A stretch of 64,000 nucleotides of DNA from an uncultured archaeon (GCA_964484305.1 CAZAEI010000002.1:11715-75714), one strand, 5' to 3'. Shown: positions 8,135-57,624, counted from the stretch's first letter. The notes: generated by a model from the sequence alone, not told the origin. Numbers and translations are program-made.

Positions 8135-11100
8135 TTAGCCTCCCAGCTTCCTTATCCTGTTCTTCACCGAATCTATGTAGGTCTTTGACATGGTGAACAT
8201 GGTCTGGCTTATCTTGTCCCTGGCCAGCTTGAGCTCGAACTCTATGTCCGTGGTATCGATGCCGCGGGCCTTTAGCTCCTTGGCCTTCTGCATCAGGGAC
8301 GTGACCTCGGTGTCGTACCTTATGTACTCGTCTATGTCCTTGTCGCTCAGCCTGCCTGTGTCGTGAAGGAGCGGCCTGAACTCTATGAAGTATGGCTTGC
8401 CGTGGTTGAATTCGGCGTTCTGGACCATGCCGGTCCCGGTCCTGAGCTTGGTCGTGGTCGAGGCATACTGGAAACCGTACTTCTGGGTGACCCTCCTGAT
8501 GTCGCCTGTGTACTTCGTCCTCATCTGCACCTCTGTGGATATGTTGGCCCTGATGGCCCCCTTGAAGTCCATGAGGACCTGGGATATCAGCCAGAGGCCG
8601 ATGCCCCACTTTCGGAACTCTCGGCAGCCCCTCTCCAGGGCCACGTAACCGCCCTTGCCACCGTACTTGGGCAGGAGGCGGTGGACCTCGTCATAGACTA
8701 TGAAGAGCTTTATCTTTGGAGATTCGGGCCAGGGTATCTTGAACATGTCAGCTATGGTCTTCCTGACAAAGATGTCGAGCTGCGCCGGCTCCATCTTGTC
8801 TATCAGGACGACCGTTATCTCTCCCGGGTTCATGTAGTTCCTGATATCGATAGCGGTGTTGGGGTCAGTGATTCTCGTTATCCTGCCCTTGTAGCGCCTG
8901 GCATCCCCGGGCTTGAGACCGAACCTGGGGTAGAGCTTCAGCATCCTCTGGTCCCTGCAGGGCCTGAGGAATCCCGTCCACTGGCAGGTCGGGTCAAAGA
9001 CAATGACGGGGATGTTCCTCTTGAGCATCTCCTCGACCACAATCATGGAGGAGACCGTCTTGCCCGCGCCCGTGGAGCCTGCGGAGATGCCGTGGGTCTG
9101 GAGCTGGGTCATGTCAAAGTAGGCAAGCATGTCGGTCTCCGCAACCTTGCCCACCACAAAGGCGTTCGGGCCTGCCTGGGGGAGCTTCTTGAAGTCCATG
9201 GGGAAGATGTACCTGGTCTTCTTCTTTTTCTTGAGCTTGATGTAGCGGTAGCCGTACCTGCCCCCATAGGCCGCGGGCACGACAAAGAAGAGGATTACAT
9301 AGGTCAGCCAGTTCCAGAATATCGCGCGGAGGGCCGCTATCACGGGCGGGAGCTCGGTCACGTCAAAGGCGTCGGCGGCGAAGGCGAACTTGTTCCCGTG
9401 CCAGTATGTCACGTTCGCCTCTATCACATACCTGTCATATGGGGTGTCCGAGGGTATGGTTATGTTCCTCCTAAAGGTAAGGCTCTGCTCCACTGCAACG
9501 GTCTCCTTGAATATCGTCATTATCTCGTCTGTGTTGAGGTTCTTGATGGTGTACTGGACAATGATGTCCTCTATGGTGGCTGTCTCTCCCATGTTGACGA
9601 GGGTGACCTCGTACCTGAACTCCTCGTTCGGGGCCACTGACTTGGTGAGGGACTTTACCTGGACGTCGAGGAGCGGGCTCGGTATCTTCTCCACCTTGAT
9701 GGTTACAGGGGTCCTGTGGGTTATGCCGAAGCCCTCCACATTGGTTATGATGTCCCCGGTGTAAACCCCGGGCTGGGTTGTCGGGAGGGTGTAGAGCTTT
9801 ATCTTGCTCACACCCACAGACCTGCCTGATATGGATATGCTCGGGCTCTCTATCTGGACCATGTCCCATATCAGGCCCTCGACAGTGAAGTTGGCTGTTA
9901 TGGAACCTGCGCGGTTGTTTATTATCTCCATGGAGTGTATCTCGTACTCGCCCTGGGAGAGGGTCACATAAATCAGGGTGGTCTTGACCTCGATTGGCCC
10001 GGAGACCGTGACGGCCTCTGCTGCGGCTCCGCCCCCACCCCCGCCTCCGCCCTCCTCGGGCTTCGGCACTTCGGGTATCACAATCGGGCAGTCGCCCGGG
10101 CATCCCGCATTGGACTCCCCCTTGGCTGACTCGCACACATCGTCGCCGCATATCCATTCGGCCAGGACAAATGCCCCGTTCAGGCTGCTCATGTTGGCTG
10201 CTATCGAATAGAATGTCGAGTTGACCGTGCTGGCAATGGCGACCCATGTTCCCTGGCAGCCCTCCATTGGAACCCAGTCGTCGCACTGGTATATGCCGAG
10301 GTTCTGGAGCATGAAGTCCGAGAGCTCGCACTCGCCCTCAATATAGCACTCCTCGCAATCAAGCTCCAGGCTCGCATAGCTGTAGTTCACGGGCTGCGTG
10401 TATATATAGTAGCCCTTGAGGGATTTCTGGGGCATCTTGACCCCCGGTATCTTGCCGAAGAGCACGGGGTTGTAGACATCATAGACCAGCTCTGAATCGT
10501 AGAGTATGACGGTCTCGTTCCTGAAGGTGATGTTGATGTCATAGGCCCTCATGTCAAGGGTCTCGTTGTAGTGCCCTGTCGCTCCCTCGGTGGTGAAGTT
10601 GTAGGCCTCGTATGATGTCCCTGCAAGCAGGAAGGTGAAGTTCAGGTGGAAGTGTGGCTTGTGGAGCTTCTCCATATTCACGGAGTCGCCTGACCACATC
10701 ACGCCCGGGAATATCTCAAAGCTCTTATCAGAATAGTTCCAGTTCCCGGAGAGGTCCCAGGCAGTGGCATTGACATGGTAGATGCCGACCTGGCTTGTGT
10801 AGTTCATGGCCACCACGAACCTGTAGAGGTCGCCGAGCTTCTCAACAAAGGTTGCGTTGAAGTCCATGGTGGAGTTGTCAGGGAATGTTACCTCCAGCTC
10901 TGCGCGCTCGACCCCGCCTGAATCGGTCGCGTTTATGTAGATATAGGCAGTGGAGTTTGCCGGGACCCTGGGCGGGACCTCGATTGCGACTTCCGGGGCA
11001 ACCCGGTCTATATAGATGACTGCCTTCATCTCGATGTCATGGAGCCATATCGAGGCATTCACATAGAGGGCACTCACATTGAGGTCATAGCCCTTGTTCT

Positions 11101-44100: not shown

Positions 44101-47100
44101 AGTTCGGATAGTCAGACCGCATGGAGACGTTGTAGTATCCGTAGGGTGTTTCCTGGTCGGGGTTCCAGTTGCACTTGTATACGTTCGCGCCGATGGGGTC
44201 TATTACCGTGCAGTTTGTATCGTAGCTCTCGTCCTGGTTTGACAGGTTGAACGTAACCTGGGTGGTGGTGTTCAGGGTTATGGGCTCCCCGCAGTAGTTC
44301 TGTGTGTAGCCTTGGATTAGTATCGTATCCGCCGCGGTGTAGTTCTCTGAGCCGTCAGGAAGGTCGATGAAGTTCTGCAGGGTTCCCGTGACGTTGAAGT
44401 TCCATGTGCTTGACTGGTCATCCTCGCACAGGTCCGGGTCTTCCTCGGTCGTGACTATCACGTACCAGTCGTGCGCCCCAACCTCGTACTCCTCATTCAC
44501 GAGGGGTGTGGAGGCATTGTCGCAGTCGGGGAAGAAGCTGTAGTTGATGTAGCCAGAGGCGTTAGTTGTCAGCGTGCGGCCGCTGTCCCATGTAGCCCCT
44601 GTCCCGGAACCCACCTTCGTGATGTACAGCTTGACATCCTTTCCTGCCCCTACCGTGCCGCCGATGTTCATCCTTATCCAGACCTCGGTCCAGTTGATTT
44701 CATCGATGTTTCCATCGTCGTAGTAATCGAAATCTATTCCCCTTATCCTGATGTCGCTGTTCGCGGGGGTTTCCCATGCCGCCAGGACGGTTGAATCGGT
44801 TGTCCATGCGGTGGCGTTTCCGGTTCCGCTCACTGAGAAATTGACGCTGCCGTCAATCCAGTCGGAGCCGTTCCAGAACTGGACCTGCAAATCGGGGTCG
44901 TTGTTTCCCTCTGCCGTGGAGCCCGTGTCGTTGTAATCAGAAACGTTCACTATAACCGAGATGTTGTATGTCTGGGATGGCAGCTCCGGGATGACATCGC
45001 TGTAGGTCGTCCAGCCCGTTACACCTTCATCGTCTATAAGGGGTGTATAGGCCAGTACATGAATCAGGTCTATGCCAAGGGTGTCGGTGTCTGCGTCGCT
45101 ATCCTGGTCCGTGTCCATGAAGGTGACGTTCAGCTCGCCGCCGCTTATCAGGGCCGTCACGTCCAGCGTCATGTTGGTTTCAGAGGAGGTTATGTTGCCA
45201 ACCTCGGTTGAGTAGGCATAGACGGTGAAGTTCTCCTCGGTGGCTGCTGAAGAGTTGGCTGAGACGTTCAGGTAGTAATATTCATAGCCGGCTGCTATGT
45301 CATCTATGATGTAGGTCACGTTCAGTACGGAACTGCCGGCCCCGGACGACTCAATCGAGAAGGTATACCCGTTGGCTTCGTTGATTTCCAGGGTGAATGT
45401 CTTGGTTCCGGTGGTGTTTGGGGGGTTAATAAACGTTTCCTCAACGCATGCAAAGGCAGCAGCCCCATCATTGGCAGGACCGCAGTAATTATTGAACCTT
45501 GACGTGCCTGAGGGCAGCCCGCTAAAGATTACATAGCCGTCCTTGAACGCGCAGTGCAGGACAAGCTCGTTGTCGGTGGTTGTGGTGACCGAGGGCGCGT
45601 CAATGGAGACACGTGTTCCTGTAAGCAGGTTGGTCGCGAACTGGCCCCAATCGCCTACGTTCTCGTAAAGCAGGATTATCCCGAGCTGTTCTTCTGAGCC
45701 TGTCCAGGACCATGTATAGGTCTTGGAGCCGGCGTTATCCTCGTCGTCCTGGGAAACAGCCTTAGTGTAAATCCATACTGCAGGGGCGGAAGAAGCCACT
45801 GTCCCGTCTATTGGCATTGAGCCCGATTCCTCCAATGTCCAGGTTTCGGTGCTCGGGGGGGTTATAGTTAAAGCCGGGGTGTTGTCATCAGTTGCCACAA
45901 TAGCTACCATGAGGTCTCCCACCAAGGCAGAGGCAGGAACGGTAATGACTACATCGTTTCCAGCAGAATTTTCATCAAACCCGTCAGACTCAGAATCCTT
46001 GTATGCCGGGACGGCCCCGCCTGATGTGGTCTCGTTAATCACCCTGAAGCTCTTGTCATAGGTCTGGGTGTCGGTGTAGTCGCCTGAAACAGAAACCCCG
46101 GATATTATGTCTTCGTCACCGGAGGAATCCATGGTGTAGTATGTGCTGCTTTCCTGCGCCGCCTTCTTCTGTATCTCTCCGGATTCCTGGTCTTCTGTTT
46201 CATTGTAGGTTGTTGCGTATCTTACAAGAACCTCCAGCGTCAGGTTTTCCGCGTCGGCGCTCCTGTTCGTGTTCACATTGTGGCCGGAGGCGACCTCGAA
46301 CTCGTAATCAAGGTCTACGTCGCAGGGCAGGCTCAGCGGAACATCAATCTCGGTTTTCCTGTCAAGAGCAACCGGGACTGAATAAACGTTGTAAGGATAC
46401 TTTGTTACAGTCAGCCTGAAGGGGGAATACGTGACGTTTCCCGTGTAATTGTATTCGGCGTATGTGACTGCCTGCTGGGTTATTGTCCCGTCTGCTGACG
46501 TGTTTATCTCAAAGATGGTGTTTCCAGAAGTGTCGTTCAGCTGGACTGTCGCATTTTCAATGGGAGCTCCCTCTGAATCCGAGACCGTCACGTCCAGCGT
46601 GTACTTCCTGAATAGCGTGCCGTTGTCCGCCTTCCAGTTGAAGTCCCAGGTATCGGACTGGATATTTATGAGCGAGCCGTTGCCTGACCCTGCGGAGAAG
46701 CCGTAGCCGTCTTTGTTGTTGACCTTCTTGTCGCTAGTTTCATTTACGACCGAGTCATTCACTATGAAGTCAACGTACGATGTGTATGTGGCGCAGTCGT
46801 CGCTCACGGTGAAGACATCGGTTACGTAGTTTTCTCCATTGGAGTAGTTTATCTGGATGGCCTGCATGTAATCGTATATGTTGCTGAGCGTCCTGTTATC
46901 GGTGACCGTTATGTTGCCGCCGTAGAAATACACGGGCCTCACGGTAGTGCTTGAATAAGCAGAGTCGAATGTGACAAGTCCTGTTTCATAATCAACACTA
47001 TAATTGGCCTTTGGTATAAGACTTGAAGGGATAAACCTCGTGGCACTCCAGCCTGTCACGTCAAGCATCTGGAGGTGCTCTGATTGCGTAACCGGGTAAT

Positions 47101-48460
47101 TGTCGAGCTGTATCGCATCATTGCCATCAGGAGTCTGGTCCTCTGAAGTAGAGCTGTAAAAATGGCCCGGAGGATTGTAGGTTATTCCTGTCTGGCTGTA
47201 TGCATTGCTTTCATTCAGCGCCGTACAGAGATTGTCATAAAGAACCGTCTGCAACGTAACGGGGGCTTCCATCGAGATTAGCGTCTTTGAATACTTGTAG
47301 CCATACTTTCTCACATAGAATTCATGAGGCGTGTAATCAGCTTTCCGTATATCAGTATCTGCATAAACGTGCAATCTCCTGAAATCCAGAATCTGTTCTT
47401 CTATTGTGCCATTAGGATATGTTTCATTGATGCCAACGAGGTTGCCGTAGAGATCTCTCGACATGGCTGTAGCATTTTCTATTTTGCTGCCGTAGAGGTC
47501 ACCCAGTTCTATATTGAATGAACTCTGCCTTAAGACGTATGTGTTGTCAGTGGTTCCGGAACCCTGCAGGTCCATTGTGGTCTCATCAATCACGGAGTCG
47601 ATGGCTATGAGATAATGGTTGTTCAACCCGACATCATAGGTATTGTCATAACCAAAATAGCCCCTCACCGCGCCACTGGAGTGCCAGCATTGTACACCCC
47701 TGTCTGCGTCATGCACCAGAAGATTATTGAACGGGGTTTCTGCCATCCCCATCAGCTCTATGGCGGCAAATCCGTTATAGAACGCGTAGTCATTCACGCT
47801 GGCATTGGAGCCAAAATAAAAAATACCATGATCGGGGTCTTTAGAAGCCGACTGGTAAGTAACTCTATTAACTTCACCATAAGTGTTCAAATCAGCGTAT
47901 GGGCCTGTGTCAATGGCATTAAAATCATCCGCGGTGTCTAAAATAGTTGCTACGGTATCATAGAACTTCAGGGAGTTGTCGGTACTGCTGGCACCTCCGC
48001 AAATGGCACCTGTATGGCCCGTGGTTGCTCCGTTTCCGCAATAGTTTGATGTCAGGTCAAATTCAAGAGAGCTTCCGGACTGGGGCATGCCGGAAGCGGT
48101 AAGCTCACCGAACTGTATTGTACTACCGGTATTTACTTCTATGTATGCATCATCAAGGAGAATGTGCTCGTTGGTGGACTTGAAGTACGTGGGATTGGTG
48201 CCTGACTCGTCGCCTATCTCAAGATTCACGTGGAGTTCGTAATAGTTTTGGCTCCCCGGCCTGGTTATATAGGTATCTGAGCAGGCAAGGTCGATATCAT
48301 AGAACGTACAGGCGTTGGCCTCATCAATTGCATCATCGCACGGGTCACTGCCGCCATCGGCCTCAATCCTGATTGGCGTAGTGCAGTCTATGTCTGCCTT
48401 TACCGTGACCGGGAGGTAGAGTAGAAGGAATATGAGTATCAGGAGGTATTTCTCTTTCAT
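8135..48460 (-). CDS. Giant 13,441-aa single-pass surface protein: signal peptide, tip domain, about 25 three-domain modules, CARDB-like stalk, TM helix and a C-terminal cytoplasmic HerA/FtsK-like ATPase.
   Basis: The reading frame is unbroken over 40.3 kb. SD GGAGGTG lies 5 nt upstream of ATG 48460. That ATG overlaps the TGA of the upstream gene (ACATGA), which suggests translational coupling. The ORF-track start at 48502 adds 14 aa with no SD support. The domain grammar is consistent along the whole length (see sub-features). Confidence 0.9.
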   Translation of the reverse strand: MKEKYLLILIFLLLYLPVTVKADIDCTTPIRIEADGGSDPCDDAIDEANACTFYDIDLACSDTYITRPGSQNYYELHVNLEIGDESGTNPTYFKSTNEHILLDDAYIEVNTGSTIQFGELTASGMPQSGSSLEFDLTSNYCGNGATTGHTGAICGGASSTDNSLKFYDTVATILDTADDFNAIDTGPYADLNTYGEVNRVTYQSASKDPDHGIFYFGSNASVNDYAFYNGFAAIELMGMAETPFNNLLVHDADRGVQCWHSSGAVRGYFGYDNTYDVGLNNHYLIAIDSVIDETTMDLQGSGTTDNTYVLRQSSFNIELGDLYGSKIENATAMSRDLYGNLVGINETYPNGTIEEQILDFRRLHVYADTDIRKADYTPHEFYVRKYGYKYSKTLISMEAPVTLQTVLYDNLCTALNESNAYSQTGITYNPPGHFYSSTSEDQTPDGNDAIQLDNYPVTQSEHLQMLDVTGWSATRFIPSSLIPKANYSVDYETGLVTFDSAYSSTTVRPVYFYGGNITVTDNRTLSNIYDYMQAIQINYSNGENYVTDVFTVSDDCATYTSYVDFIVNDSVVNETSDKKVNNKDGYGFSAGSGNGSLINIQSDTWDFNWKADNGTLFRKYTLDVTVSDSEGAPIENATVQLNDTSGNTIFEINTSADGTITQQAVTYAEYNYTGNVTYSPFRLTVTKYPYNVYSVPVALDRKTEIDVPLSLPCDVDLDYEFEVASGHNVNTNRSADAENLTLEVLVRYATTYNETEDQESGEIQKKAAQESSTYYTMDSSGDEDIISGVSVSGDYTDTQTYDKSFRVINETTSGGAVPAYKDSESDGFDENSAGNDVVITVPASALVGDLMVAIVATDDNTPALTITPPSTETWTLEESGSMPIDGTVASSAPAVWIYTKAVSQDDEDNAGSKTYTWSWTGSEEQLGIILLYENVGDWGQFATNLLTGTRVSIDAPSVTTTTDNELVLHCAFKDGYVIFSGLPSGTSRFNNYCGPANDGAAAFACVEETFINPPNTTGTKTFTLEINEANGYTFSIESSGAGSSVLNVTYIIDDIAAGYEYYYLNVSANSSAATEENFTVYAYSTEVGNITSSETNMTLDVTALISGGELNVTFMDTDQDSDADTDTLGIDLIHVLAYTPLIDDEGVTGWTTYSDVIPELPSQTYNISVIVNVSDYNDTGSTAEGNNDPDLQVQFWNGSDWIDGSVNFSVSGTGNATAWTTDSTVLAAWETPANSDIRIRGIDFDYYDDGNIDEINWTEVWIRMNIGGTVGAGKDVKLYITKVGSGTGATWDSGRTLTTNASGYINYSFFPDCDNASTPLVNEEYEVGAHDWYVIVTTEEDPDLCEDDQSSTWNFNVTGTLQNFIDLPDGSENYTAADTILIQGYTQNYCGEPITLNTTTQVTFNLSNQDESYDTNCTVIDPIGANVYKCNWNPDQETPYGYYNVSMRSDYPNYYENLTIKQPPETFYLTTSPSLTEANATPRQDSWALEHNFSVRIADNLDDTVNVTLQEQILGQSWYDVESRNCTNCSDNAEGYTTFDFNKTYPCSGYAGQWMKFRFRAYDSEGNTIYTDSVTQYYGEDDTFELQKSDVNVTYIYGNETKAQPTQPTEFGVQVYDLDNLSRTFSGYETPLVKFDVTTNGAGSSLVMINSSLTNSSGHANVTFLPDGQFYDGNQTWYGYIGSDDACYRYNKTENLTVEIELNWPPRYENETINGYVGEESTSVSQGWGEGWTFNVTVYDPESDTVDVELQLNTGSGWFKLDNQTCTECSYWETKNFTISLDCGNVSSLAQYRFIITDNESNQNTTTARSFTTEEDDVTYLVIWGHENVTNRSADLLNLSLHVRIMDENGSYAQPNTTMYITKVGTGGGASWDSGHLLTANDTGEVLYDFFPECDNASTPTENEEYEVGLHEWYVKVEDSNTCYKATQSSTYNFTVYGSLYPAIDLPDGSQNFSIGEIVLLQGFIENYCEEPMAVNTSTQISYMLNTTDYGDYCSPISRIGANVYKCNWLPWQEAEYGYYNVTMWANYSYYYENTTISPDIFYLTTSPILKAGNVTPRISSWETEFNFTVNVSDNKGDTVNVTLQYQVVGQGWQDYTTQSCTNCSDNGALNYTQLNWSLTLPCSGYAGSYMKFRFNATDEEGNMKISDPINPGQYVDNDDTFQAEKSDVNVTYVYGNESYTSLTTSTEFGVQVYDLDNLSRTFSGYETPLVKFDVTTNGAGSSLVMINSSLTNSSGHANVTFLPDGQFYDGNQTWYGYIGSDDACYRYNKTENLTVEIELNWPPRYENETINGYVGEESTSVSQGWGEGWTFNVTVYDPESDTVDVELQLNTGSGWFKLDNQTCTECSYWETKNFTISLDCGNVSSLAQYRFIITDNESNQNTTTARSFTTEEDDVTYLVIWGHENVTNRSADLLNLSLHVRIMDENGSYAQPNTTMYITKVGTGGGASWDSGHLLTANDTGEVLYDFFPECDNASTPTENEEYEVGLHEWYVKVEDSNTCYKATQSSTYNFTVYGSLYPAIDLPDGSQNFSIGEIVLLQGFIENYCEEPMAVNTSTQISYMLNTTDYGDYCSPISRIGANVYKCNWLPWQEAEYGYYNVTMWANYSYYYENTTISPDIFYLTTSPILKAGNVTPRSGPWSGNFNFTVNVSDNLGDTVNVTLQYQVVGQGWQDYSTQSCTNCSDNGALNYTELNWTGVTYPCSGYAGQLMKFRFNATDEEGNMKISDPINPGQYVNNDDTFQIQKDNVSIIYISGNNTNSSLSIPAEFIVRLYNNDKQTYDLSPASTVTFNVTTNGEGGDYTTAGTNTTNATGYATFYFLPDDYYITGIQDWIAYVSTTETCYSYNVTDVQKVNTQVHAPLLENENVSMLSGGWGYEWNFSVDVYDEYDNVTVQLWRSTFPVGAPWTLMDEDYYNNSGNWETLNFTPQFTCDNIGLWYYKFNATDEYQNSNTTTPSSYRNFTITQDPVVFEYQQGDDSTANRSGDQTDTLILRIWDGNGTELLDFNVTFYVETNSYEYDSGINITTNSSGHAVYDFNASCTPTRYEVGVQNWKAETDGYRCYADNSSTEYDLTVMGDFNVSFDWPLEENKTVGDRIRFEASIWDDCQAELGGATVRFNASGLTEDECSAVTSPVTGYYKCSETPQGLDTTGYRQGWYNATLNATKDYYYMNETVKTNMSNGGFFYLYIYPLLEDPAVVPTSEGWSRKFNFSVNVTDDPLDNVTVQLWHSSSGGTGGEWLQLDGDLYCEDCNDTVLNWTDINFSCSYKGTVNFKFNASDIDVKTDSEESSFTVEADDVIVEYGGSGNDTEINRSADTITLSTKVNDTDANEYVPSGVYGRLWVTTDGSAYSDLGLITTDADGFFNETFPPGGDECDYDVGIQKWKMQTSDTCYASQNSSEHYVAVYGDLYADIIQPTGLQQFSESETVPIVLKGNLTDDCSQGVSNAEVNFRLDGPMTYWCPESGYVTNLTGSIYQCDWNSSGKAGGDYNITMFAYKSYHNNDTDLEEDAFHLSVPIQILNEMAIPDTPDDAPWGRNYTFSVNVTHINDVYLCLWERPAGLSFTEVECRNVTVPTGKTELFYHQYSVSDYDTSATREWKFNASERDTGASPQTTSTHTLTLTPDNLTMGTLYDEDGKPEVFVEAPSHMVEDLGNCPSGRYQHIIVFNDEEDPVNVTGMVFFEGDPSETTSMMETGATFSVHSYSESAAPDYANRDSGDLYWYEWGWSNGTIGVTIQPGEYHVFWAQVTPLGEQSFPYRPIGSGYYNSTVYLGDGQAVGSGNYDMGMLPDHGGALHFRLDLEQGDSLLSDEDSDYCSSPYNWFTRENRTANRSDILDVLIPVWLEAENSGRGEILSFSTNVTFPRGWNYILGTAKVNGRGVQKITHYLINGVDRLVWTFDGDDPSWIDQYKDNQSMGQAYLTFQVKSACPYEGAYVWEINATNIQQEDYDENHTDYVNLTTFCFAPNREDTPKNTQVERQGSATTPLFVDVFDIILGEYADSSTTEQVFYNVTTDGSVYTNQHQGGEMKVLTTDSAPHMYANFSFNPGCSPFYQAGVQNWFAYTKSDAYDYHKDNVNSSSIYNVTIIGQLEPNITIPYGDYLKGETINITVDVVGDCNEDITTATINVTLKSQDTLNTYECTNVTNWGGGSYSCYWNSSVIGFDYANYTIYANASDVAYYNNGTDIETDAFSVNPPVSKINVTAMYVPDEIFQNRSFVVNATVTVTEKASEQVNATLEVPLDWQVLPSRTQNLSAMGIDDSKDVGWEVYVNSSYEVSYVINVSVNNTEEQEDRNITTVLAYRFLDLGCPASAIHYNTSGDSEDDVTTQFCSVDVTLGASLDDSSLEADLTAGQEPEESVEAAWPCEGGDYRIGNLTAYWEGSSGPSRARVYAYNGTDWFNVLHSQDIGDNAEEQPVSIMQNQIAPNGTGYCIIRIENAGGNGLMLDALFLQLYYRPSVSVIDIKPAIAGDETSGMEKGDGNLNVTVRVQNTLNASYTVNITLNITNSSGGVIYSQTQTDVPLDKGTTVYENFTEIDTSSWGSGTKYLNAFVDYNSSQAKRREQFEFRNVSFSVLGPDYMCPSTTEELNVTVSHLFADRVYYNISVSVPAGWTVSPQYQEANLTSTSSFYFNLTSSGSPTGSSLVNTTVSYTYPDSYAKSIEHEKTIINDYVPILEVTRESPASLSNYTDFDVRLFVHNKGCVPAYDVRLNETTPYGWTVYDASINLGGTLNGQIISWDLGEIGVNFYKNPSYTIKAHFLEDQVGPFYWNSTWKDNVSSSYQANQTLYFRVRTKWEEHMRFELNTSSFEGRSAELNATTNYTLIIENVGEASSAGDWNATLYIPPSCTPDYLGGGSWDSGNRTISWNVSSDLAQGQTQKFNFSMNCTETGPLVLLAAAISDQRGEASYYNSTNYNCSGRSCFSQNTHTFQNPGMPYESLSELDFLINYTRTGSNMTIGESIVNMTGDTGYVIPVWQNFTFNESSGELWVNRTVTDDESSEFNNQQHQIGVYSHSDATMQADGSIIIKQISYSWKYGKKFNEQEGLFLKVKPIHYPLLENPDVNPYSVGWGEGHNFTVDVYDSGDNVTVYLWEAFSASGPWTLKDSQLYSSPGSWATLNFTEHHNCSEVGTKYYKFNATDEFGYSNETSSGSFYIDYDDLVITEIQGDGSVANRSGSQIDTLILYLQDENGSFIYDVNITFYVTTSGFNWDDGTNEPTNDTGYATYDFDAKCSSPKYEVGSHQWKGEVTGQSCYNDKVSSLYDMTIMGDLNVTLLDPSNTNYTEGDTVTFYGYLTNDCDDLLQGYPLEFRPWHDTYIEYLDAENLPGGYYRYYWSTLGGKPGGWYNITINATELTQDTYYSDQKDYIYPNVTEPIHAFYLEIAPRLREANVTPRQDGWSYQRNFTVNASDEAEDTLTAYAWQRESTGEWEQITPSRQCTSCDNATMNWSASYTCSDLTGETATMYFKFNATDGTLSYTTSVASGDYVGDDNSFILERQDVILEHSYGDETAVNRTGPGSATPLILNVTDTDRNQVAYPPAATVVFNITTDAGPGFLLEGSNTTNDTGEVTYYFNPNCSYHVGKQYWQGFTQDGCYKTNQSGTFNVTVIGNIVLSASAENSTYHQEENITVWINVTDDCGTFISVSFLNVTLRYNESIAYNCTNLYEWNTGNYSCNWSTTKQDVTGYYDIVMEASNPPNYNNGTKEEIHDFMLISYENNNPMLSNENVIPEGWGTLTNFSVDVEDPDFDNVTVWLWEGDSGSGPFTLIDSQTCWDCEPGETLNFSTYHNCQDAQAPKYYKFNASDAQGGTDSTPTNQFQVEPDNVTVYVREGSLAQVNRSLDQLSTVVIIQVYDSDNLTYVGQDVNTSLFVAYSGTSYDSGLTNTTNSSGHARFYFNPNCSYTVGDRNWIAGTYGDQCYDDETNSPPQTMRIYGDLVINFTNISCPGGFCFDGDNVTIRANLSDECGTLLNESNAIINVTHDTYNSECDVNDEGDGYYNCTREVAGTPGGWYAVHARVDRGFHNPEYIVNSTGFFHQIGPYLYAEQVTPSNVPWGNNPAKSTFTFNINVSDDDDNITLRLYMTKTPPDWGLPKDSQSVQDYLNQTVTLSEQFTACADVGTWYWKINVSDTSDLNDTTSGSDTVEVTNVNVTFSILQGNDSVVQRYGSNKTLLHVRVINNYTGGVEGMPGNTGYFWVTTTTGGEFSQNHQDGLMTNTTKNDGNLTMYFNPGCSGPHYWAGPQEWKAGVTFSSCYNNANSSEFNVNITGILTPNITYPIGVIPFLKGDPVPIWGDVEDDCGPISGIDVDFSIDNFWTPPAPNDWANGSYNTTWDSTEGSIGRHDVNMTVTNESYDVNQDWEEDALILVVKPQLRNPFTDVGIGGADGWGHNFTFKVEYCDQDGEDTVNISLWVSSSTLGPWTFIDSTDVSGCTWSNVTFHHNFSCQDYLENIQYFRFVANDTYNYSNETQSQLFHLQRDNVSLYSYYTSASQVSREGDETIFFSIFVNDTDRGGDVGAGVNGSFWVSINSTTGLLDSGHPRETNISGALNYTFNATCDYPTGSQYWFSGALDDQCYDDENDTTQHYFDILGQLKLSLDQPPNMSEFNVTDDILMNWTVFGDCESNISGVTNTVEIYQPLNDSYCSGWNEEPNGVYNCTWNSTSQPEGNWTINITAERGTYNSNETSWLYRFWLENRDPVSSQATADPMSGGWGATYMYNITIDDPEADETVCTLYTNTTGSGWVERGYDVVQWTGNCTILVSDFISDDMGPTQFRFRINDTFNLYETDNLTGPALSEDNVTVTFIHGNHTGGSEGSVQRSGQDYTNLIVNVYDEDRGNYPQGVNVTFWITYSGTSKDSGNTTTTDSSGNATDSFDPGCGPKYGVGNQTWLAGITDSSYINKNTTDNYTVYITGSLTNQVQIPNGTEHLRGTNVTVRANVTDDCQDVITGAGVTYQMRNVSLYECVYKSEEGSGWYNCSFNTSDMEPMGYNLTVNSSKTDHASESLTLEYVETETSFWVETEPCMSGVVAIPWVGGWSETFNFTVNVTDEDYDQVIVYGYFRTEEPAQGSWNPLGAGSDSGSGINWTAFFQHQFGPGYVSTILSVMFNATEDDEWWFNTTPVNFTVEEDDVNYTHTQGNETTVNRVGNDNKTLIIYVWDQDDPAHPPASTNNPEGRFWITTNASDPGSWDSGTSRQVNDTGYIKYEFNPDGSCTYGVGKQLWKVGLTTSSQYYKESNSSETWNITITSEFTPDLITPLNKSFRKGIDPVLLSANLTDLASGCGLVSDANVSFYIHRSGYSDYYCQAAETSNPGIYNCTIPAAETNNPGWVYGWYNMTINASREFYANISETFNDTFYIGSDPVLSITGTGVTPFSEGWGRTFNFTVDVYDLDGNNVTVRLYKKLFSESDYTHLQTKECAPCSSDQYNPTVMTFVVDTFTCSDIGSSNFKFNATDTHDFTDESDIKSFTVQKDSVNYQARTQNNTDTVRQGTDTILISYYVYDTDRGNLALPADVNGTVYVTSNEWDWGNPLYNQTNDTGHLNYYLDTNCSHKFGYHIFSTRIENDDCYNPDSEMFWPGNRTFNVYGQLLNNIDLPAYQEPFNVTDPVPVRLNTTSDCSLDRPDEAIINNSYITIQVISPYGIWHDCTPVENETDPTQGYYNCTWDSTDHREGWWSIQLNSSRAYFNDNRTHLQDWFQLENLNSTWSQQQVVPQADGWTRPFNFSVNITDPDSDTVNCSLYINRYDGQGWVFRGNMTLHDPSGVVGQTCWVELRDFTGDDIGENTYMFYIQNGEPSNYFNTTNYTGPTLEVANTSIAFITPNGTTVNMTGDTELLTVLVNDTDNYTLQNWFPPGVNVTFWVTYNDSSLNVTLNQTNQTGHANYLFEPDCSFSIGPQEWWANVTDSHYEMNTTGHNLTIYIYEELAIQVEQPLGIEYLNGTNVTFRFNITEYSCGRNVTGVDLSRLNITAIHEDTGQNFTCDYKSEEGQGWYNCSMNTSGLPAQEYTVMIIAGKDYYNDVNETHEYAESTSGFFVESEPVLTEPTMNSTDYDGDTGANGSYMEPRNLSVRVTDPDGDNVNVYFYRRMWTGSGWDDWTEIGMSWCSSCNNSLVYYYDSYVYSYEYHLGTWQYKANCSDQANYPRSGGVSYSDEVGPFNYTVEKNDINITVYDGDGAWLWRNGSAYYVLSTKVKNVDDNFQELAGGEANGTVYITKDHANLENVTDPGNPPKNTNYGFFNYSFHPDGDDDATSNCEYDIGVQKWRVFVHNNQRYKDENSSLLNITLRTFLNGTIHSPIDLAPYVQEAGINITFNFSLFDECLDPVAGANEKNITLDGPANYFITNSTIDDEGDGHYTHNRSASDTAQTPPNYNTTAQAWKQYYEMVTLYANDSFTVGTRPQLQYINPIVDPSVDGWGYQSGFSFFAQCKDADNDVMNVTLWKRATPNDEWGLLDYNSCQGTNWQNDATFTITTFDCGDISPSGWHSQFKINATDEDGYGVELGPQNFTVQSDNVTVIQKQGYGVDVYRNGSGGPGVELFQVLINDTDAGNVPVPQGVNGTFWITSTGSDFDTEWTNTTNGQGYLNLYFNPNCFYKFGAQQWIGGVWNDQCYDVENSTSQAFNVYGQLLNNIDLPAYQEPFNVTDPVPVRLNTTSDCSLDRPDEAIINNSYITIQVISPYGIWHDCTPVENETDPTQGYYNCTWDSTDHREGWWSIQLNSSRAYFNDNRTHLQDWFQLENLNSTWSQQQVVPQADGWTRPFNFSVNITDPDSDTVNCSLYINRYDGQGWVFRGNMTLHDPSGVVGQTCWVELRDFTGDDIGENTYMFYIQNGEPSNYFNTTNYTGPTLEVANTSIAFITPNGTTVNMTGDTELLTVLVNDTDNYTLQNWFPPGVNVTFWVTYNDSSLNVTLNQTNQTGHANYLFEPDCSFSIGPQEWWANVTDSHYEMNTTGHNLTLIIMDELLNNITYPDYTQFNKGVNITLNATIQDSCGSNVSDASVYFIIESELYGDKYYCNDTQTLGDGQYSCEFNSSGMKAGWYDVTMASNRTYYNTNHSYDYHTFSVETAPVLVFAGYGVDPAGGGWGESFNYSVNVSDEDGDTVRVYAYERKYGDASWGSPLIAPNGEDPYQECQPCDNTTLTFTIDNFDCANGLGDNLTRVREFKFNATDDPPGPDDTDEIGPRNYTMTKNDASIEYVQGNDSWVYRPSGTITLQLRIYDLVKQQYANIPNERSIVNITNMTGNWISSPVNQSNPQGYITYEFDPGCSPKYDTGPQLWRGYIEGTPSNPGCYAENVSDNFTVNIWTSPLNYTLTIPDGEHYRRSLDNITIRGRVYDECAGEIGGVNNATVTFEAISPACNFECSDDTGNDGGGIEDEFESGGTRGWYNCTFWGPDNTSNWAGTCLNVYNTTLYATKNFYNSSSALVDNESFVLTQVPSIRWWTNPHTIDPIGGGWGAKHTFHYYFEDDEGASDSVNITLWKSVGVDNWTLINYTIRNNPNEQLFTFVHTFNCGEQGTNYYLINVTDKWNDTNETTTENWDMGKDRVYTYAGASDDEVDREGQETAYLNVYFSDLDKGYTNVVAGVDGKIWVTFNGSDTGTWDDGHANQTSGDGYMRIWFDPSCDPLYEVGSHDWKGGIELDECYENYAGNSSSTTLTVYGRLNSTIDTPQQGNSSTVGDMLYSRYNVTDDCSQLVNETTTTIEFKHPTSSWDSHTPADEGDGWYNYDLDTSFHKGGWYDVRINASKTYYRPDNSSFWDDWFYLENTPPAISEVNVTPGEGPWGGVYTYSVKIWDTQQDNVTCELWVSTDGGSSYYKKNWTTIWGGRDYCNLTVGDALDGTEFNCSDMGTDNSFHFMIDDETNVNYTDNITGPNLTADTAMITYSFGNESVIDRDDSSSNHLATYTVYTNDTVRVGHVLTGTDITFWTTYNNSVFDGGNLNQTNTSGHALLYFNPGCSGPKYEVGPQEWKAGITDSCYAAVNTSQNYTLEIWGSLYGDIEEPGQDEEYERGVENISTKGLVEDDCGDTKTGVNVTFNFTHVDDSDVYPCLYYTIEGTIYYRCKRNTTGMKARWYNNTMYSSMAYHYSNATTWESHFEVVTKPVLTQETALTNPGGWGERFHFSVNLTDEDYDEVEVKLYAKKQSDSLWGVPKNSTIADTAVGEIINLSWRDDPIDCGNIDDWEFYFKATDNRSPPFTNETGPGNFTIERDNAYMLLEQGHEAYIWRNGSDNYQLIMRVWDNDTNNYAETGTIGATNATFWVTTNHSLDTWDVGKYEFDNGSAYILYDFMDEVPQPECDYKVGPHYWKAGVGGLKEDVCYKPINSTEYTVYLNSTLIMTIHEPHGQGILWGTPLDVVGYIEDDCNPVENSTVQWVFSRKTTQWPENQDQANQSQGWYNYTWTETYKRTDWYNITMDADKEYYGPNQTLREDAFFIALAPDIQDAGIDKELGGWGENFYVWVVITDADSNYNNITLWKRQWNDSQGDWDEWLLINQTWEYDLGDDEVHFDQHFACADMGWNQFRFNSKDEFNFTDDSNKTVTDDSLQLKNTSWSEAPIHDASGQADSGFNHTETTDEAGFFETFNITIHNQNGTVMYFNLSVNGVQVADNQSVQDGQNATVDAISGGASFTLPGGQDINFTVTDGQGGSGEANYTTYLNQSMLYQSFSTSHYIDAFYDVERFNVTLQNENGSTLYFDLEVNGITVAQNLSVAPGENASYDARRQGGLDFTPPGSQQISIAVTNGSGGNASARFSLYLHYIAGVHEFYLQEDNVTVYLCDGTDCLPASNTTVRRVGAQNAFLNIRIEDTDAAFDKYPDGVDTGFWITEDYENFTVFYDCTTTGAGYCDVNHNPGCATPAGIQKWKLETLDSCYQPLNSSTKNLQVFGQLYANYTTPVDGDVLNRNLTYTLNATVNDDCGTYINYSTLTWQNESWDLINTTDNGSLGFYDRSWYIGESYELGPDILRINTTKTHHDKGTNQTDILIYGWAGIDTMWPPNGTEFDAGAMNTWITCHVSDINTGQSIESYNVDFYKNGVYNASDDTDWQGNATWYWYTEWEDAGPYNISCKISDDDVLYYNVSAGERMSNITVNRQLIIDEITKSYGTIYRNDSYDPHETEICVHVNDAQIGNASGANVSFYNNSGFIRNCTTDQWGRCNITYNVTDNIAPGNYTIHINATKAGISDSDTVETYLDVIGVLILNITSPVDESKHPKTGTVDLDVNITDEAGSVISGCDVEWWNETGMLTDMQTYPNYPLTGQEAGNRTITSNATKQYYAAGNNSVLITIEAVVDVYYVSPANYTLLPYPVPFDVFCQVRYAEAAGGGPVEDYDVELYYYWESAGLPWVFINNFTTNPSGYINHTFDPGQKGNLNFKCNITDNTSRLIQAGISEAQGIITIRDVNLPVITNTSIVPDTSIEANLNYTNITANVTDDVGINKVWADILLPNQTHENVTMTNESLGGDLYRVSYVPVLSGLYHVWIWAQDTGPEYNNASLYAGTFDVWGKITGLIELNKTILMSGITQSHGAQFNLSVNFTNLGPPTGYYVELRSMDDPNDTLVINDTYQDIGNLSVNETYTWPLTVDVPAGTPPMLIRVMIYANWTDPDLTLNSTLNWSDVFVSSNPILDIVEDELTNTVPHESTLYYVGNFTVYSSGNDAVDDIDITMVGGNLSSECPECVVDIIPAAWGRLEAGYQFSSSLYIDIPAGQPPGDYWTVVRASASNTEPDDMILTVNVPENTSWTRTPGSLSSYENPILALLNASAAIGNITTTNIGNSRIAIKVYRTENGSDMVLADPEYFELGKQVSRNTTISYIVPVAKPKGMYYVKLILRNETADPQEWITDLWLNVTDTPPLIDDVNATPLVFEAGYENVSISANITDNFEVSDAWIRVVRPTDCGYINESKMIHSATSDSGFNYTEQVNSLYDASMLYFNITIENNNGTEISLNLAVNSLLVADNISIPSGQSATIDAVAGGASFTLPGYQHINMTMDGNASYDARLNYSVLDVSAYTEQMNGTAKPFYHATYNSSLEGYHDLYICANDTAGLSGCTSMIQLYGAGTTHLIMTTNVSEVNITGITLSDSEDFDFNLTVMPDWARLFNLSVTLGLPGSWSAAPDTFNFSDMLKHETKSNESRVTVATSTWPGNYTVNLTANWTELNGYTNGTNLTSILVMVQPNPAIDILESTLPYFVRSGGTGNKTMNIYSIGNVNATNITYSCIWGEVCENFTVGFNPLNISVLEPGQGQLVNITITVPPLYKAGEYAGTVEALEAGGSNDTVFIVLTVPINLSWYHDPEDITINLSHETSGNMGYITVHNTGNARLILEVIQSGNGTPYIPLDKDELDLDIASSDTIMVNYTLPHIDDITTYQSLIRTENLSAGEPTYQETWVTVNAFPFSLDLTHPTQAEPTKNVTASDAIQVEVNVTYGGEPLNHSVEFNLTLFNATGSWHLNITSANYSNYTGLWHLNFSAPNISENKGYDLNVSALYVNASIWLHDIEMKAVIYIDRVAPEVAIEVPPRVPANSTAYIYINATDSGGVERAELEVTFPDNSTMDFNATFVEKLGDLYRFVVAMNYTSQVGIYHVNATAWDLSGNWNYSDKSFEIFPGVMWSGDSVNMEKLHKPHFHLNFTFLLAGTSYEAYNFTTEGATGHYNETLDMRAYDINITFRNETVILYDSELVYDVYNPVLFGKIPGVKMPQKSLKGYYIYTQPVNYSYASLELDCEECYIEGECELSDFMLQNLGIYQCDDWVPMEGCQGTWVAIASTVNSTFYSIAANMSSLNGAFVLAEWICGDDVCESAKGESNAGCPGDCPIVIPEVPKPEEGGGGGGGGAAAEAVTVSGPIEVKTTLIYVTLSQGEYEIHSMEIINNRAGSITANFTVEGLIWDMVQIESPSISISGRSVGVSKIKLYTLPTTQPGVYTGDIITNVEGFGITHRTPVTIKVEKIPSPLLDVQVKSLTKSVAPNEEFRYEVTLVNMGETATIEDIIVQYTIKNLNTDEIMTIFKETVAVEQSLTFRRNITIPSDTPYDRYVIEANVTYWHGNKFAFAADAFDVTELPPVIAALRAIFWNWLTYVILFFVVPAAYGGRYGYRYIKLKKKKKTRYIFPMDFKKLPQAGPNAFVVGKVAETDMLAYFDMTQLQTHGISAGSTGAGKTVSSMIVVEEMLKRNIPVIVFDPTCQWTGFLRPCRDQRMLKLYPRFGLKPGDARRYKGRITRITDPNTAIDIRNYMNPGEITVVLIDKMEPAQLDIFVRKTIADMFKIPWPESPKIKLFIVYDEVHRLLPKYGGKGGYVALERGCREFRKWGIGLWLISQVLMDFKGAIRANISTEVQMRTKYTGDIRRVTQKYGFQYASTTTKLRTGTGMVQNAEFNHGKPYFIEFRPLLHDTGRLSDKDIDEYIRYDTEVTSLMQKAKELKARGIDTTDIEFELKLARDKISQTMFTMSKTYIDSVKNRIRKLGG
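8681..8707 (-). other. Walker B motif LFIVYDEVH (hhhhDE).
   Basis: A hydrophobic strand ending in D-E, 116 aa after the Walker A motif. Confidence 0.8.
9056..9079 (-). other. Walker A motif GSTGAGKT.
   Basis: The minus strand reads ggc tcc acg ggc gcg ggc aag acg. Confidence 0.9.
9260..9322 (-). other. The single C-terminal transmembrane helix of the giant protein (IFWNWLTYVILFFVVPAAYGG).
   Basis: This is the only long hydrophobic segment after the signal peptide. It is followed by RYGYRYIKLKKKKKTRY, which places the C-terminus in the cytoplasm by the positive-inside rule. Confidence 0.8.
21632..22636 (-). repeat. Exact intragenic duplicate, copy 1 (1,005 bp, 335 aa), offset 3,105 bp from copy 2.
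   Basis: Identical to 24737-25741. Duplicated shadow ORFs confirm this (22029=25134, 22106=25211, 22204=25309). The first mismatches are at 21631/24736 and 22637/25742. Confidence 0.9.
24737..25741 (-). repeat. Exact intragenic duplicate, copy 2 (partner of 21632-22636).
   Basis: The protein block NVYGQLLNNIDLPAYQEPFNVTD...EMNTTGHNLT occurs twice verbatim. Confidence 0.9.
40596..41893 (-). repeat. Exact intragenic duplicate, copy 1 (about 1,298 bp, 432 aa), offset 1,734 bp from copy 2.
   Basis: Base-for-base identical to 42330-43627 when the two stretches are read side by side. Duplicated shadow ORFs confirm this (40933=42667, 40962=42696, 41099=42833). The flanks are similar but diverged. 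Coordinates are good to within 1-2 nt. Confidence 0.85.
42330..43627 (-). repeat. Exact intragenic duplicate, copy 2 (partner of 40596-41893).
   Basis: As for copy 1. The protein block GVQVYDLDNLSRTFSGYETPLVKF...ILKAGNVTPR occurs twice verbatim. Confidence 0.85.
48395..48460 (-). other. Sec-type signal peptide of the giant protein (MKEKYLLILIFLLLYLPVTVKA|DIDC).
   Basis: A basic N-terminus, a hydrophobic core and a V-K-A small-residue cleavage motif. Confidence 0.7.
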
Positions 48461-49710: not shown

Positions 49711-49729
49711 CCCGTGCCTGTCTCTCTGG

Positions 49730-50413
49730 CTATTCAAAATACCTCACCAAAAGCTTTATTTCTCGCTCCCCTAGCTTGGAGGAAAGGGAAGCGGCAACCG
49801 TAAGTTCGCTTGTGCAGGTGGCTCCGGCAGGCACATCGCAATAATGGCTGCCGCTTCCCGCAAGAATGGAAATGCCATCCGGAAGAACCCATTCTATCTC
49901 CACATCATGGGCGTCAGTGTCTCCACGATTGGATATCTCGGCTGATAGAAGGAAGGGCTCGTTTCGGTTGGCCCTCCCGGGCATGTGTGGGCTGGTCTCG
50001 ATAACAGGGCCTGTGGCTTCTGGTTCCTGTTGTTCCTGGCCTGGTTGCTCCTGGGTCTGGTTCTGTCCTGATGTCTGGTTGGTGGGTTCTGGAAGGGTCT
50101 GGTTATCAGGAAGGGTGACGTTGGTTTCATCAAGCAGGAGTGTGATGTTTATTGTGATGTTTTCCTCTGGGAGGGTCAGGTTGGTTTCATTTATTGGAGC
50201 GCCCTCCCCTGTTTCTGATTCATTGAAGAAGACTGGCGTGTTGTTTTCTTTTGCAGGAAGGGTTGTGTTCTCTGTGATGTTTTCAGGGGACGTACTGGTT
50301 ATGTTGGCGGTCATGCCGCCGGTTATGTTGTCAGTGGCGTTCTGGGCCACAATCATTGTTGTCGGTATCAGGAGTAGAAAGAGGGCTGCGGCTAGGATTT
50401 GTGCCTGACCCAT
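49730..50413 (-). CDS. Small secreted protein of about 227 aa with a signal peptide, an N/T/E/Q-rich sequon-laden linker and a C-terminal CARDB-like domain.
   Basis: MGQAQILAAALFLLLIPTTMIVA|QNATDNIT; the leader is paralogous to that of the next gene. The C-terminus NEPFLLSAEISNRGDTDAHDVEIEWVLPDG is CARDB-like. The ATG at 50413 is preferred over 50464. No clear SD is present, and it is the first gene downstream of an AT-rich promoter gap. Confidence 0.7.
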   Translation of the reverse strand: MGQAQILAAALFLLLIPTTMIVAQNATDNITGGMTANITSTSPENITENTTLPAKENNTPVFFNESETGEGAPINETNLTLPEENITINITLLLDETNVTLPDNQTLPEPTNQTSGQNQTQEQPGQEQQEPEATGPVIETSPHMPGRANRNEPFLLSAEISNRGDTDAHDVEIEWVLPDGISILAGSGSHYCDVPAGATCTSELTVAASLSSKLGEREIKLLVRYFE

Positions 50414-50464
50414 CTGGGATTTTCTCTGCTTTAGATGAAATAGGTTCGCTATATCTGCCACCAA

Positions 50465-51307: not shown

Positions 51308-51339
51308 GATAATTGGTTAGTTATCCTAAAGGTTTATAT

Positions 51340-51351
51340 TGTCGACCGACA
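51340..51351. promoter_or_regulatory. Inverted repeat TGTCG-AC-CGACA between a TATA-like box (tttatatt) and the ATG of the wHTH gene.
   Basis: Read directly. It sits 10-20 nt upstream of ATG 51362. The TATA-like box lies about 25 nt upstream of the ATG, which suggests a leaderless or short-leader mRNA. Confidence 0.4.
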
Positions 51352-57623: not shown

Positions 57624-57624
57624 T

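Follow-up and report, generated by a model that had tools for sequence, protein, structure and literature searches.

A 64,000-nt stretch of DNA from an uncultured archaeon (GCA_964484305.1 CAZAEI010000002.1:11715-75714; hereafter the window, from whose first letter all positions are counted) carries on its minus strand a single 40-kb gene encoding a membrane-anchored surface protein of 13,441 amino acids (aa), which we call the giant. Direct homology over its last approximately 750 aa (E 5e-109) identifies the giant as a member of SPEARE, a family of very large surface proteins that DPANN archaea anchor in their membrane; we found no longer member in the literature and data that we searched. 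We consider it likely that this is a genuine SPEARE-family gene of an Aenigmatarchaeota-like DPANN archaeon and that its product, whose function we infer, joins a glycosylated host-tethering fiber to an ATP-driven machine.

The reading frame extends over 40,326 nt from an ATG at 48460 to a TGA stop at 8135-8137 without a single internal stop codon in a window devoid of Ns (the listing of open reading frames, ORFs, gives it as 8135..48502 on the minus strand with 13,455 aa when begun at GTG). A Shine-Dalgarno-like GGAGGTG (48472-48466) lies 5 nt 5' of the ATG, which shares the letters ATGA with the TGA (48459-48457) of the upstream 426-aa ORF. Given the base composition of the strand, 13,441 stop-free codons would arise by chance with a probability of about 10^-225, and the two other minus-strand frames hold 745 and 480 stops. 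GC content at codon positions 1, 2, and 3 is 0.48, 0.42, and 0.76, respectively, and uniform along the gene; the high value at third positions accounts for long antisense ORFs, and the longest ORFs overlapping the giant on both strands (227-425 aa) have no match in Pfam. Searches of the whole window for tRNAs and Rfam families gave no match either, and its GC content of 55% does not suggest a haloarchaeal setting. Judged by these sequence properties, the 40-kb ORF is a real single gene of the expressed type, with a computed product of 1.50 MDa and an isoelectric point (pI) of 4.15. The giant, its start signal, and its parts, including immunoglobulin (Ig)-like domains, a transmembrane (TM) helix, and a P-loop ATPase, are the following (HMM, hidden Markov model; AF2, AlphaFold2):

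8135..48460, minus strand: coding sequence of the giant, 13,441 codons plus TGA (ORF listing, translation, composition).
48466..48472, minus strand: Shine-Dalgarno-like GGAGGTG (sequence).
48395..48460, minus strand: signal peptide, aa 1-22 (MKEKYLLILIFLLLYLPVTVKA, followed by D), from hydropathy, with a putative cleavage site.
44933..48394, minus strand: N-terminal "tip", aa 23-1176, with a Cys-rich start (Pfam, PDB, and homolog searches).
37535..44932, minus strand: module array I, aa 1177-3642, a ~330-aa unit repeated about 9 times if variants are counted, including a tandem 578-aa duplication (chunked BLAST, HMM iteration).
33473..37534, minus strand: middle region, aa 3643-4996, partial module matches and weak NPCBM_assoc/DUF11 Ig-like matches (HMM, Pfam).
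16361..33472, minus strand: module array II, aa 4997-10700, 17 consecutive ~330-aa units of three Ig-like beta-sandwiches each (HMM iteration, AF2, Foldseek).
10019..16360, minus strand: membrane-proximal ectodomain, aa 10701-12814, weak Big_7/NPCBM_assoc matches (Pfam, locus comparison).
9344..10018, minus strand: two juxtamembrane Ig-like domains of CARDB/NPCBM_assoc type, aa 12815-13039, within the conserved family core (homologs, AF2, BLASTP).
9266..9343, minus strand: single TM helix, aa 13040-13065, followed by a Lys-rich (KKKKK) stop-transfer stretch (hydropathy, AF2).
8345..9265, minus strand: cytoplasmic HerA-like (DUF87) P-loop ATPase, aa 13066-13372 (Pfam, AF2, Foldseek, alignment).
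8138..8344, minus strand: C-terminal three-helix/coiled-coil tail, aa 13373-13441 (AF2).

An earlier note on this DNA had described the same frame with its start codon, ribosome-binding motif, and overlap with the preceding gene, had proposed a signal peptide, some 13,000 aa of recurring beta-sandwich-like modules, one TM helix, and a cytoplasmic ATPase, and had considered such a frame unlikely to arise by chance; all of this is borne out by the analysis.

SPEARE proteins were described by Hamm et al. (2019) in nanohaloarchaea as reaching 5,998 aa (NAR1_1133 of Ca. Nanohaloarchaeum antarcticus) or even 8,553 aa (Ca. Nanopetramus SG9), with the same topology as the giant and an intracellular part that is better conserved than the rest and to which Aenigmarchaeota and other DPANN have related sequences (PMC6642349). 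The N. antarcticus protein was detected by mass spectrometry in this host-dependent organism, with ectodomain and TM/cytoplasmic peptides in different size fractions that hint at processing, and its supplementary annotation lists DUF87 and P-loop domains (PMC6642349). Compared by BLASTP with its C-terminal 752 aa (text of SI Fig. S18, PMC6642349), the giant shows 31% identity over 758 aa in an alignment that begins shortly ahead of the linker and continues collinearly across the two Ig domains, the TM helix, and the ATPase into the coiled coil. Both proteins contain a poly-Gly stretch in the linker (though BLASTP does not pair the two runs), and the Pfam signatures DUF87, NPCBM_assoc, and weak ResIII are common to the giant and the reported SPEARE. 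The giant thus shows a signal peptide, a long Ig-like ectodomain, a single C-terminal TM helix with a cytoplasmic tail, a homologous DUF87 domain, and a terminal coiled coil. It differs from the characterized N. antarcticus protein in being more than twice as long, in the dominance of a 330-aa triple-Ig unit, in an unrelated N-terminal tip, and in a source that is apparently of another phylum with 55% GC. It also differs in the laminin-G, serine-protease, and (BC-)toxin-like regions claimed by Hamm et al. (PMC6642349) and disputed by Reva et al. (PMC10266531), none of which we detected: neither the full-length protein nor tiles of its non-repeat regions gave a Laminin_G, peptidase, or toxin match in Pfam, and PDB sequence searches were empty.

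The final ~665 aa of the giant also align end to end with "DUF87 domain-containing" proteins of ~725 aa, mostly from Aenigmarchaeota, that consist of a signal peptide, Cys motif, Pro/Gly linker, two Ig domains, TM helix, ATPase, and coiled coil. Across 50 homologs, the columns of Walker A (GSTGAGKT at aa 13128), Walker B (VYDEVH, with YDEVH invariant), REFRKWG, and SQ do not vary. An AF2 model of aa 12815-13441 built with these 50 homologs reached a predicted local distance difference test (pLDDT) score of 90.5, with a long helix at the TM segment and three helices at aa 13373-13438 for which the local pLDDT (10-residue blocks) is mostly above 90. Pfam detects DUF87 above its cutoff together with a HerA_C match and a weak ResIII match. 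Foldseek comparison of the core model matched the ATPase part to HerA structures (4d2i, 9x1m, 8xau, SIR2-HerA, and DUF4297-HerA) with no VirB4, VirD4, or TrwB structure within the top 50, the best E-values falling on the two Ig domains rather than on the ATPase, and a phmmer search of the PDB with the ATPase likewise returned HerA. The modeled fold of the ATPase is therefore nearest to HerA, not VirB4, and shares with HerA (4d2i, 9x1m, 8xau, 8wiv) the RecA-like core, Walker A and B, Arg-finger-type motifs, and the Pfam signatures DUF87 and HerA_C.

The ectodomain comprises 13,013 acidic residues (computed pI 4.1) behind a signal-like hydrophobic segment (aa 2-26) that is followed by VKA and, after the putative cleavage site, D; hydropathy analysis shows one further hydrophobic stretch at aa 836-857. 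Its ~330-aa units were recognized by chunked BLAST and HMM iteration, whereas self-BLAST of the whole protein returned the self-match alone, and amount to 33 module matches or about 30 copies in two arrays. AF2 modeling of one module from an alignment of 23 internal copies predicted three beta-sandwiches (pLDDT 85.3), and Foldseek matched this model to complement macroglobulin domains and to the adhesin extender repeats 5irb and 6xi3, in line with the beta-sandwich-like modules of the earlier note. About 90 Ig-like domains (~30 units of three) are thus recognized in the ectodomain. Elsewhere, Pfam searches of the whole ectodomain and of tiled non-repeat regions yielded only sub-threshold Ig-like matches (NPCBM_assoc, Big_7, and similar), and the middle 1,361 aa gave nothing useful in a PDB sequence search. 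The membrane-proximal part terminates in a Cys motif (ICGDDVCE...CPGDC) and the poly-Gly linker. For the N-terminal 1,150 aa, neither Pfam nor a PDB sequence search found a match, and a homolog search with the tip gave two proteins only, one of them on CP070809.1; by its sequence, the tip is fast-evolving and lineage-specific on a conserved stalk. The ectodomain carries 729 NxS/T sequons compared to 205±13 in shuffled sequences, a 3.6-fold excess, while the cytoplasmic part (pI 9.8) has 1 sequon where shuffling predicts about 1.

Other very large surface proteins resemble the giant to different degrees. Reva et al. (2023) reported SVXNc_0300 (9,409 aa) and BNXNv_0298 (8,880 aa) from cultured nanohaloarchaea with a signal peptide, ~75 Ig-like domains, TM helix, VirB4/TraG-like ATPase, and coiled coil, and proposed that they form a "straw" akin to a type IV secretion system (T4SS; PMC10266531). 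By description, these proteins share with the giant the Sec signal, Ig array, TM helix, cytosolic ATPase, and coiled coil without other enzymatic domains. They differ in N-terminal WD40/PQQ-like propellers (none detected in the giant), in an ATPase that their authors call VirB4/TraG-like as opposed to the HerA-nearest fold found here, and in a second VirB4/TraG-family ATPase gene directly downstream, where the giant has a gene for a coiled-coil protein. A SPEARE-type protein of 12,127 aa from KA27, an EX4484-52 (DPANN) metagenome-assembled genome (MAG), is of near-equal size, was assigned to the family by its authors, and comes from a non-hypersaline anoxic habitat, but differs by description in having TM helices at both ends (PMC8470020). 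Outside the family, the Ig-repeat adhesins (Marinomonas MpIBP of 1.5 MDa, 5irb; 6xi3) are likewise megadalton fibers of ~100 tandem beta-sandwich extenders with a distinct distal tip; they are RTX proteins secreted by type I secretion systems and retained at the outer membrane, whereas the giant has a Sec signal, a C-terminal TM helix as its anchor, and a fused ATPase, shows no sequence homology to them, and gives no RTX or HemolysinCabind match in Pfam, its C-terminus being the TM helix and ATPase. Halomucin of Haloquadratum walsbyi (9,159 aa), which the earlier note had cited for scale and which was indeed the largest known archaeal protein when first published, is likewise a huge extracellular protein of an archaeon and bears a signal sequence (PMC4378361). 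It is secreted, mucin-like, and without TM anchor or ATPase, and the likeness is in size only.

Relatives of the giant are numerous. A scan of data in which each species is represented by one genome revealed at least 581 loci of the ATPase family, of which the best 80 (L015-L094) are the basis of all locus counts given below. By record title, these 80 are mostly from Aenigmatarchaeota, with others from Micr-, Woese-, Parv-, Undin-, Alti-, and Nanoarchaeia MAGs. In about 70 of them, the ATPase ORF meets no stop before the available sequence ends, and in about 50 loci with ~10 kb of upstream DNA it is open for at least 3,790 aa. Wherever enough upstream DNA is available, most of the 80 loci are collinear with aa 9,500-12,791 of the ectodomain at ~25-50% identity, and this collinear stalk is seen also in MAGs labeled Micr-, Undin-, Woese-, and Nanoarchaeia, so that the membrane-proximal 3,300 aa are, as far as sequence comparison tells, conserved across DPANN phyla. 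In a representative protein library, the ATPase found 1,501 matches; in the 150 listed, it either forms the C-terminus or is followed by no more than a few hundred residues, and 36 of these proteins have at least 3,000 aa and 12 at least 5,000 aa (the longest, 7,878 aa). By record title, loci from Nanoarchaeia (L073, L087), Parvarchaeota (L079, L090), and Undinarchaeota (L085) carry family members whose ORFs are open for 2,400-3,980 aa or more, in each case up to the locus edge. In Nanoarchaeia and Parvarchaeota, Hamm et al. (2019) reported no SPEARE-like sequences (PMC6642349). We did not use one locus titled "Candidatus Nanohalarchaeota" (L032, JAFCBV010000041.1) as a link to SPEARE, since its nearest proteins (up to 94% identity) are labeled Aenigmarchaeota and its label or bin purity is doubtful. 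The search for homologous giants that the earlier note had advised was therefore productive and qualifies the rarity that it had claimed: such a gene is rare among genes generally but typical for this DPANN lineage, and the implied uniqueness does not stand in view of the published SPEARE family (PMC6642349, PMC10266531) with its 12,127-aa member (PMC8470020).

Around the giant lies an array of genes on the same strand together with a ParA-type gene:

310..6198, minus strand: 1,962-aa type-I membrane protein (Pfam, hydropathy).
6208..8034, minus strand: 608-aa cytoplasmic coiled-coil protein without TM helix, directly downstream of the giant.
48457..49737, minus strand: 426-aa ORF (417 aa from ATG), upstream and translationally coupled to the giant, secreted or anchored, with weak Ig-like matches.
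49730..50464, minus strand: protein of 244 aa, either secreted or anchored, whose C-terminal domain is NPCBM_assoc-like, upstream, the first gene of the same-strand array.
51936..52682, minus strand: archaeal MinD/ParA-type ATPase, 248 aa (domain searches).

The 1,962-aa protein has a signal peptide, an NPCBM_assoc/CARDB Ig-like ectodomain, a TM helix at aa ~1850-1879, and a short cytoplasmic tail; a PDB sequence search with its N-terminal half gave nothing useful. A homolog of the coiled-coil protein (~525-608 aa) directly follows the ATPase gene in 70 of the 80 loci. The 1,962-aa protein is matched in equally many (70/80), in about 45 by a long collinear match just downstream, with several cut by contig ends, and its weaker matches may reflect shared Ig-like domains. 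In 28 of the 80, a ParA/MinD homolog is encoded no more than 10 kb from the ATPase gene. These gene neighborhoods indicate that the giant, the coiled-coil protein, the ~1,950-aa membrane protein, and ParA/MinD form a conserved cluster, of which we found no description in the literature on the family. The 426-aa upstream ORF is not conserved in distant clusters. Where the ATPase protein is small, as in one distant cluster with a small type-I partner and a 725-aa member (L008:8391-9311, L008:4522-6690), the partner has only 306-344 aa (NPCBM_assoc-like domain, TM helix, and short tail) compared to 13,441 and 1,962 aa in the cluster of the giant, and the sizes of the two membrane proteins appear to scale together.

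The 244- and 426-aa upstream proteins both begin with a hydrophobic segment ending in (I/V)AQNAT that is followed by N-x-T-rich sequence, and they have no detectable homology to two small upstream proteins of the same distant cluster (L008). A ~30-aa motif, L..LE..y....IS.e.Ye.vk, occurs three times in the 608-aa protein (6211-8034) and once in the tail of the 1,962-aa protein (313-612) and is visible also in the 306-aa protein of L008; its identification as SHOCT-like was dropped (BLAST E 0.18, no Pfam SHOCT match). Close to the giant are genes for a dolichyl-phosphate-hexose-transferase-like family 2 glycosyltransferase (50615-51307, plus strand) and an MraY/GPT-family transferase (59752-60765, minus strand). 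The archaeal mevalonate-entry trio of thiolase, HMG-CoA synthase, and a small OB-fold/zinc-ribbon protein (52713-55703, minus strand) deserves mention for a putatively host-dependent DPANN genome.

How such a protein might work can be outlined as follows. The giant would be exported co-translationally and heavily N-glycosylated, forming a flexible fiber several hundred nanometers long (~0.4-0.5 µm for ~120 domains of ~4 nm, if the unmodeled parts are built alike). Since this fiber would be longer than the cell, it could catch a host cell and keep it attached; the N-terminal ~1,150 aa would be its binding tip. At the membrane, the ATPase may oligomerize like other FtsK-HerA rings, organized by the coiled-coil partner and positioned by ParA, and ATP hydrolysis would then drive the movement of a polymer (DNA or protein) or the remodeling of the contact site. 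The tandem in-frame repeats may let the length of the fiber vary by recombination.

Several points weigh against this reading as a whole. The source is apparently an Aenigmatarchaeota-like DPANN archaeon, a label taken from the names of the closest matches alone, and the role in adhesion is argued from analogy with Ig-repeat adhesins and from DPANN biology. Pfam and PDB sequence searches found no lectin, protease, toxin, nuclease, or enzymatic domain in the ectodomain. On the side of the machine, the ATPase differs from HerA in being membrane-tethered and fused to an ectodomain, in its low identity (~11-17%), and in the absence of a HAS-barrel, with only ~60 residues and two short strands between TM helix and Walker A in the AF2 model. 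Furthermore, Pfam finds no VirB4 N-domain (CagE_TrbE_VirB) in the ATPase, and Pfam and NCBIfam searches of the window ORFs reveal neither NurA, SIR2, DUF4297, or another nuclease partner among the neighbors nor T4SS channel partners or other T4SS components. Finally, independent short-read contigs break at two exact repeats inside the giant, where the repeat copy number is uncertain, and its length of 13,441 aa is possibly off by ±578 or ±1,035 aa.

Beyond the SPEARE-family tether proposed here, one could speculate, at lower confidence, that the four-gene cluster is a previously unrecognized DPANN-wide and size-scalable cell-cell apparatus, which would run on ATP as a conduit or motor and differ in mechanism from T4SS, Ced, and type IV pili. 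Its parts would be a membrane-tethered HerA-like ATPase fused to an ectodomain (~300 to >13,000 aa), a cytoplasmic coiled-coil scaffold, a second type-I membrane protein (~300 to ~1,960 aa), and a positioning ATPase of ParA/MinD type. If true, this apparatus would take up host DNA or protein or pull the symbiont onto its host, and it would be present in most DPANN phyla.

Two narrower proposals seem unlikely to us. The first sees the giant as a secretion channel, the T4SS-like "straw" of Reva et al. (2023), with a VirB4/TraG-like ATPase that would pump effectors from the symbiont into the host through its ectodomain or along it, and the giant does share family and architecture with the proteins for which this model was proposed (PMC10266531). 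Its ATPase falls into the FtsK-HerA superfamily, which also holds VirB4 and VirD4, and has weak Pfam matches to T4SS-DNA_transf (14.6 bits, E 0.015) and TrwB_AAD_bind (12.3 bits, E 0.079). The ParA-like ATPase of the cluster recalls VirC1. However, both Pfam matches lie below their gathering cutoffs (20.1 and 20.5 bits, respectively), and the structural matches of the ATPase are to HerA. Apart from the missing VirB4 N-domain, the adjoining genes include no second VirB4-like ATPase and nothing like VirB6, VirB8, or VirB10 but encode coiled-coil and Ig-rich membrane proteins, and strings of Ig sandwiches make rods, not conduits.

No more probable is the second proposal, that a HerA/FtsK-like ring pulls host DNA into the cell after docking of the fiber as a form of DNA or nucleotide import (compare Hamm et al. 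2019 and the crenarchaeal Ced system). HerA/FtsK relatives are translocases of double-stranded DNA, some of the matched HerA structures were solved with such DNA, and the cluster includes a ParA partner. Nucleotide synthesis is among the many biosynthetic pathways that DPANN archaea lack. There is also a weak NCBIfam match to CedD, but it covers only the P-loop region and scores 23.9 bits against a cutoff of 600, and Pfam and NCBIfam searches of the window ORFs found no CedA-like channel genes nearby. With one TM helix per subunit, a ring would form a pore of 6 helices at most, and Pfam detects no nuclease or DNA-binding domain, none having been found by Reva et al. either (PMC10266531). At this locus, both the straw and DNA import lack their defining components.

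A coat function, with the giant forming an envelope or glycocalyx as proposed for halomucin and the ATPase serving only assembly or turnover, is less probable still. Extreme size, a pI of 4.1, 729 sequons, nearby glycosyltransferase genes, and an ectodomain without identified ligand-binding domain would all suit a coat. Yet, the family is found mainly in MAGs labeled as episymbiotic DPANN lineages, the fast-evolving tip on a conserved stalk suits a receptor-binding fiber, and an intact conserved ATPase with its coiled-coil partner and ParA is hard to explain, and fits poorly, for a passive coat.

The weakest alternative concerns the gene itself, which could be a pseudogene or a chimeric join of several genes or repeats. 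It draws on two exact repeats of more than 1 kb, at which short-read contigs stop:

40596..41893, no strand: exact 1,298-nt repeat, copy 1; the same sequence recurs 1,734 nt (578 codons) further on, at 42330-43627.
42330..43627, no strand: exact 1,298-nt repeat, copy 2 (window self-comparison).
21632..22636, no strand: exact 1,005-nt repeat, copy 1; the same sequence recurs 3,105 nt (1,035 codons) further on, at 24737-25741.
24737..25741, no strand: exact 1,005-nt repeat, copy 2 (window self-comparison).

Because both offsets are multiples of 3, mis-resolution of these repeats would alter the length of the giant but never its frame, and collapse of the repeats would leave at least ~11,828 aa. 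Using neighbor proteins for exact-sequence look-ups, we retrieved 13 and 16 independent contigs from several samples. One of them, a JGI contig (L011; 3300031654, 47.8 kb), matches the window collinearly over 59710..38457, differing from it at 89 positions and by no indel (99.58% identity); the compared stretch of the giant translates stop-free for 3,334 aa, and the giant is called there with 7,831 aa, open to the contig end. Logan contigs hold the final 4,508 aa. Together, these same-strain assemblies cover aa 1-~7,908 and 8,934-13,441 without stop and leave aa ~7,908-8,934 uncovered. The earlier note had named stops, frameshifts, or chimeric joins in reads, especially at the exact repeats, as what would split the ORF; the covered parts are free of stops, though the contigs break precisely at these repeats. 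Within the gene, the window and the JGI contig show 88 differences, a set of 44 that recurs position for position in each copy of the 1,734-nt repeat (41328-41633 and 43062-43367), and these reflect either gene conversion/concerted evolution or an assembler consensus.

Orthologs add to this picture. One of them (L001) spans aa 9,604-13,441 and is collinear over 3,308 aa, with an identity of 65% in the ectodomain and 86% at the C-terminus; that its ATPase is a separate gene was rejected, as the break is a 10-N scaffold gap. A 77%-identical relative (JGI 3300009034) has an in-frame TAG (L002:179-181, "GDIIT*IGNY") between the juxtamembrane Ig domains, because of which gene calling assigns its ATPase part to a gene of its own with 485 aa, and this TAG could be a sequencing error, a pseudogene, or a true split. 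Two single-sequence Aenigmatarchaeota chromosomes of 1.05 Mb (CP070801.1, L086) and 846 kb (CP070809.1, L095) show at the orthologous gene, respectively, Ns with only 1,568 aa open and a "partial" N-terminal piece of 1,493 aa followed by unrelated genes. With the independent assemblies, orthologs from dozens of species that are collinear and open for at least 3,790 aa, and uniform codon-position GC on the other side, an assembly artefact is unlikely, and that the 40-kb ORF as such is a pseudogene or chimera seems hardly credible to us.

As a genuine SPEARE-family gene, the giant would occupy ~4% of a 1-Mb genome and, with 13,441 aa, exceeds the published 12,127, 9,409, and 9,159 aa. It extends published accounts by its size, the conserved cluster, the conserved membrane-proximal 3,300 aa, the sequon excess, the HerA-like fold of the ATPase, and kilobase-long exact in-frame repeats. 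The latter are also a practical warning, as short-read assemblies fall apart at them, and the gene seems cut short even in "complete" Aenigmatarchaeota chromosomes. DPANN make up a large share of archaeal diversity, and their cultivated members live attached to hosts. SPEARE-type giants are leading candidates for this attachment and have so far been analyzed almost only in nanohaloarchaea; the two Ig domains, TM helix, ATPase, coiled-coil partner, and ParA now define a core of the putative machinery that can be tested.

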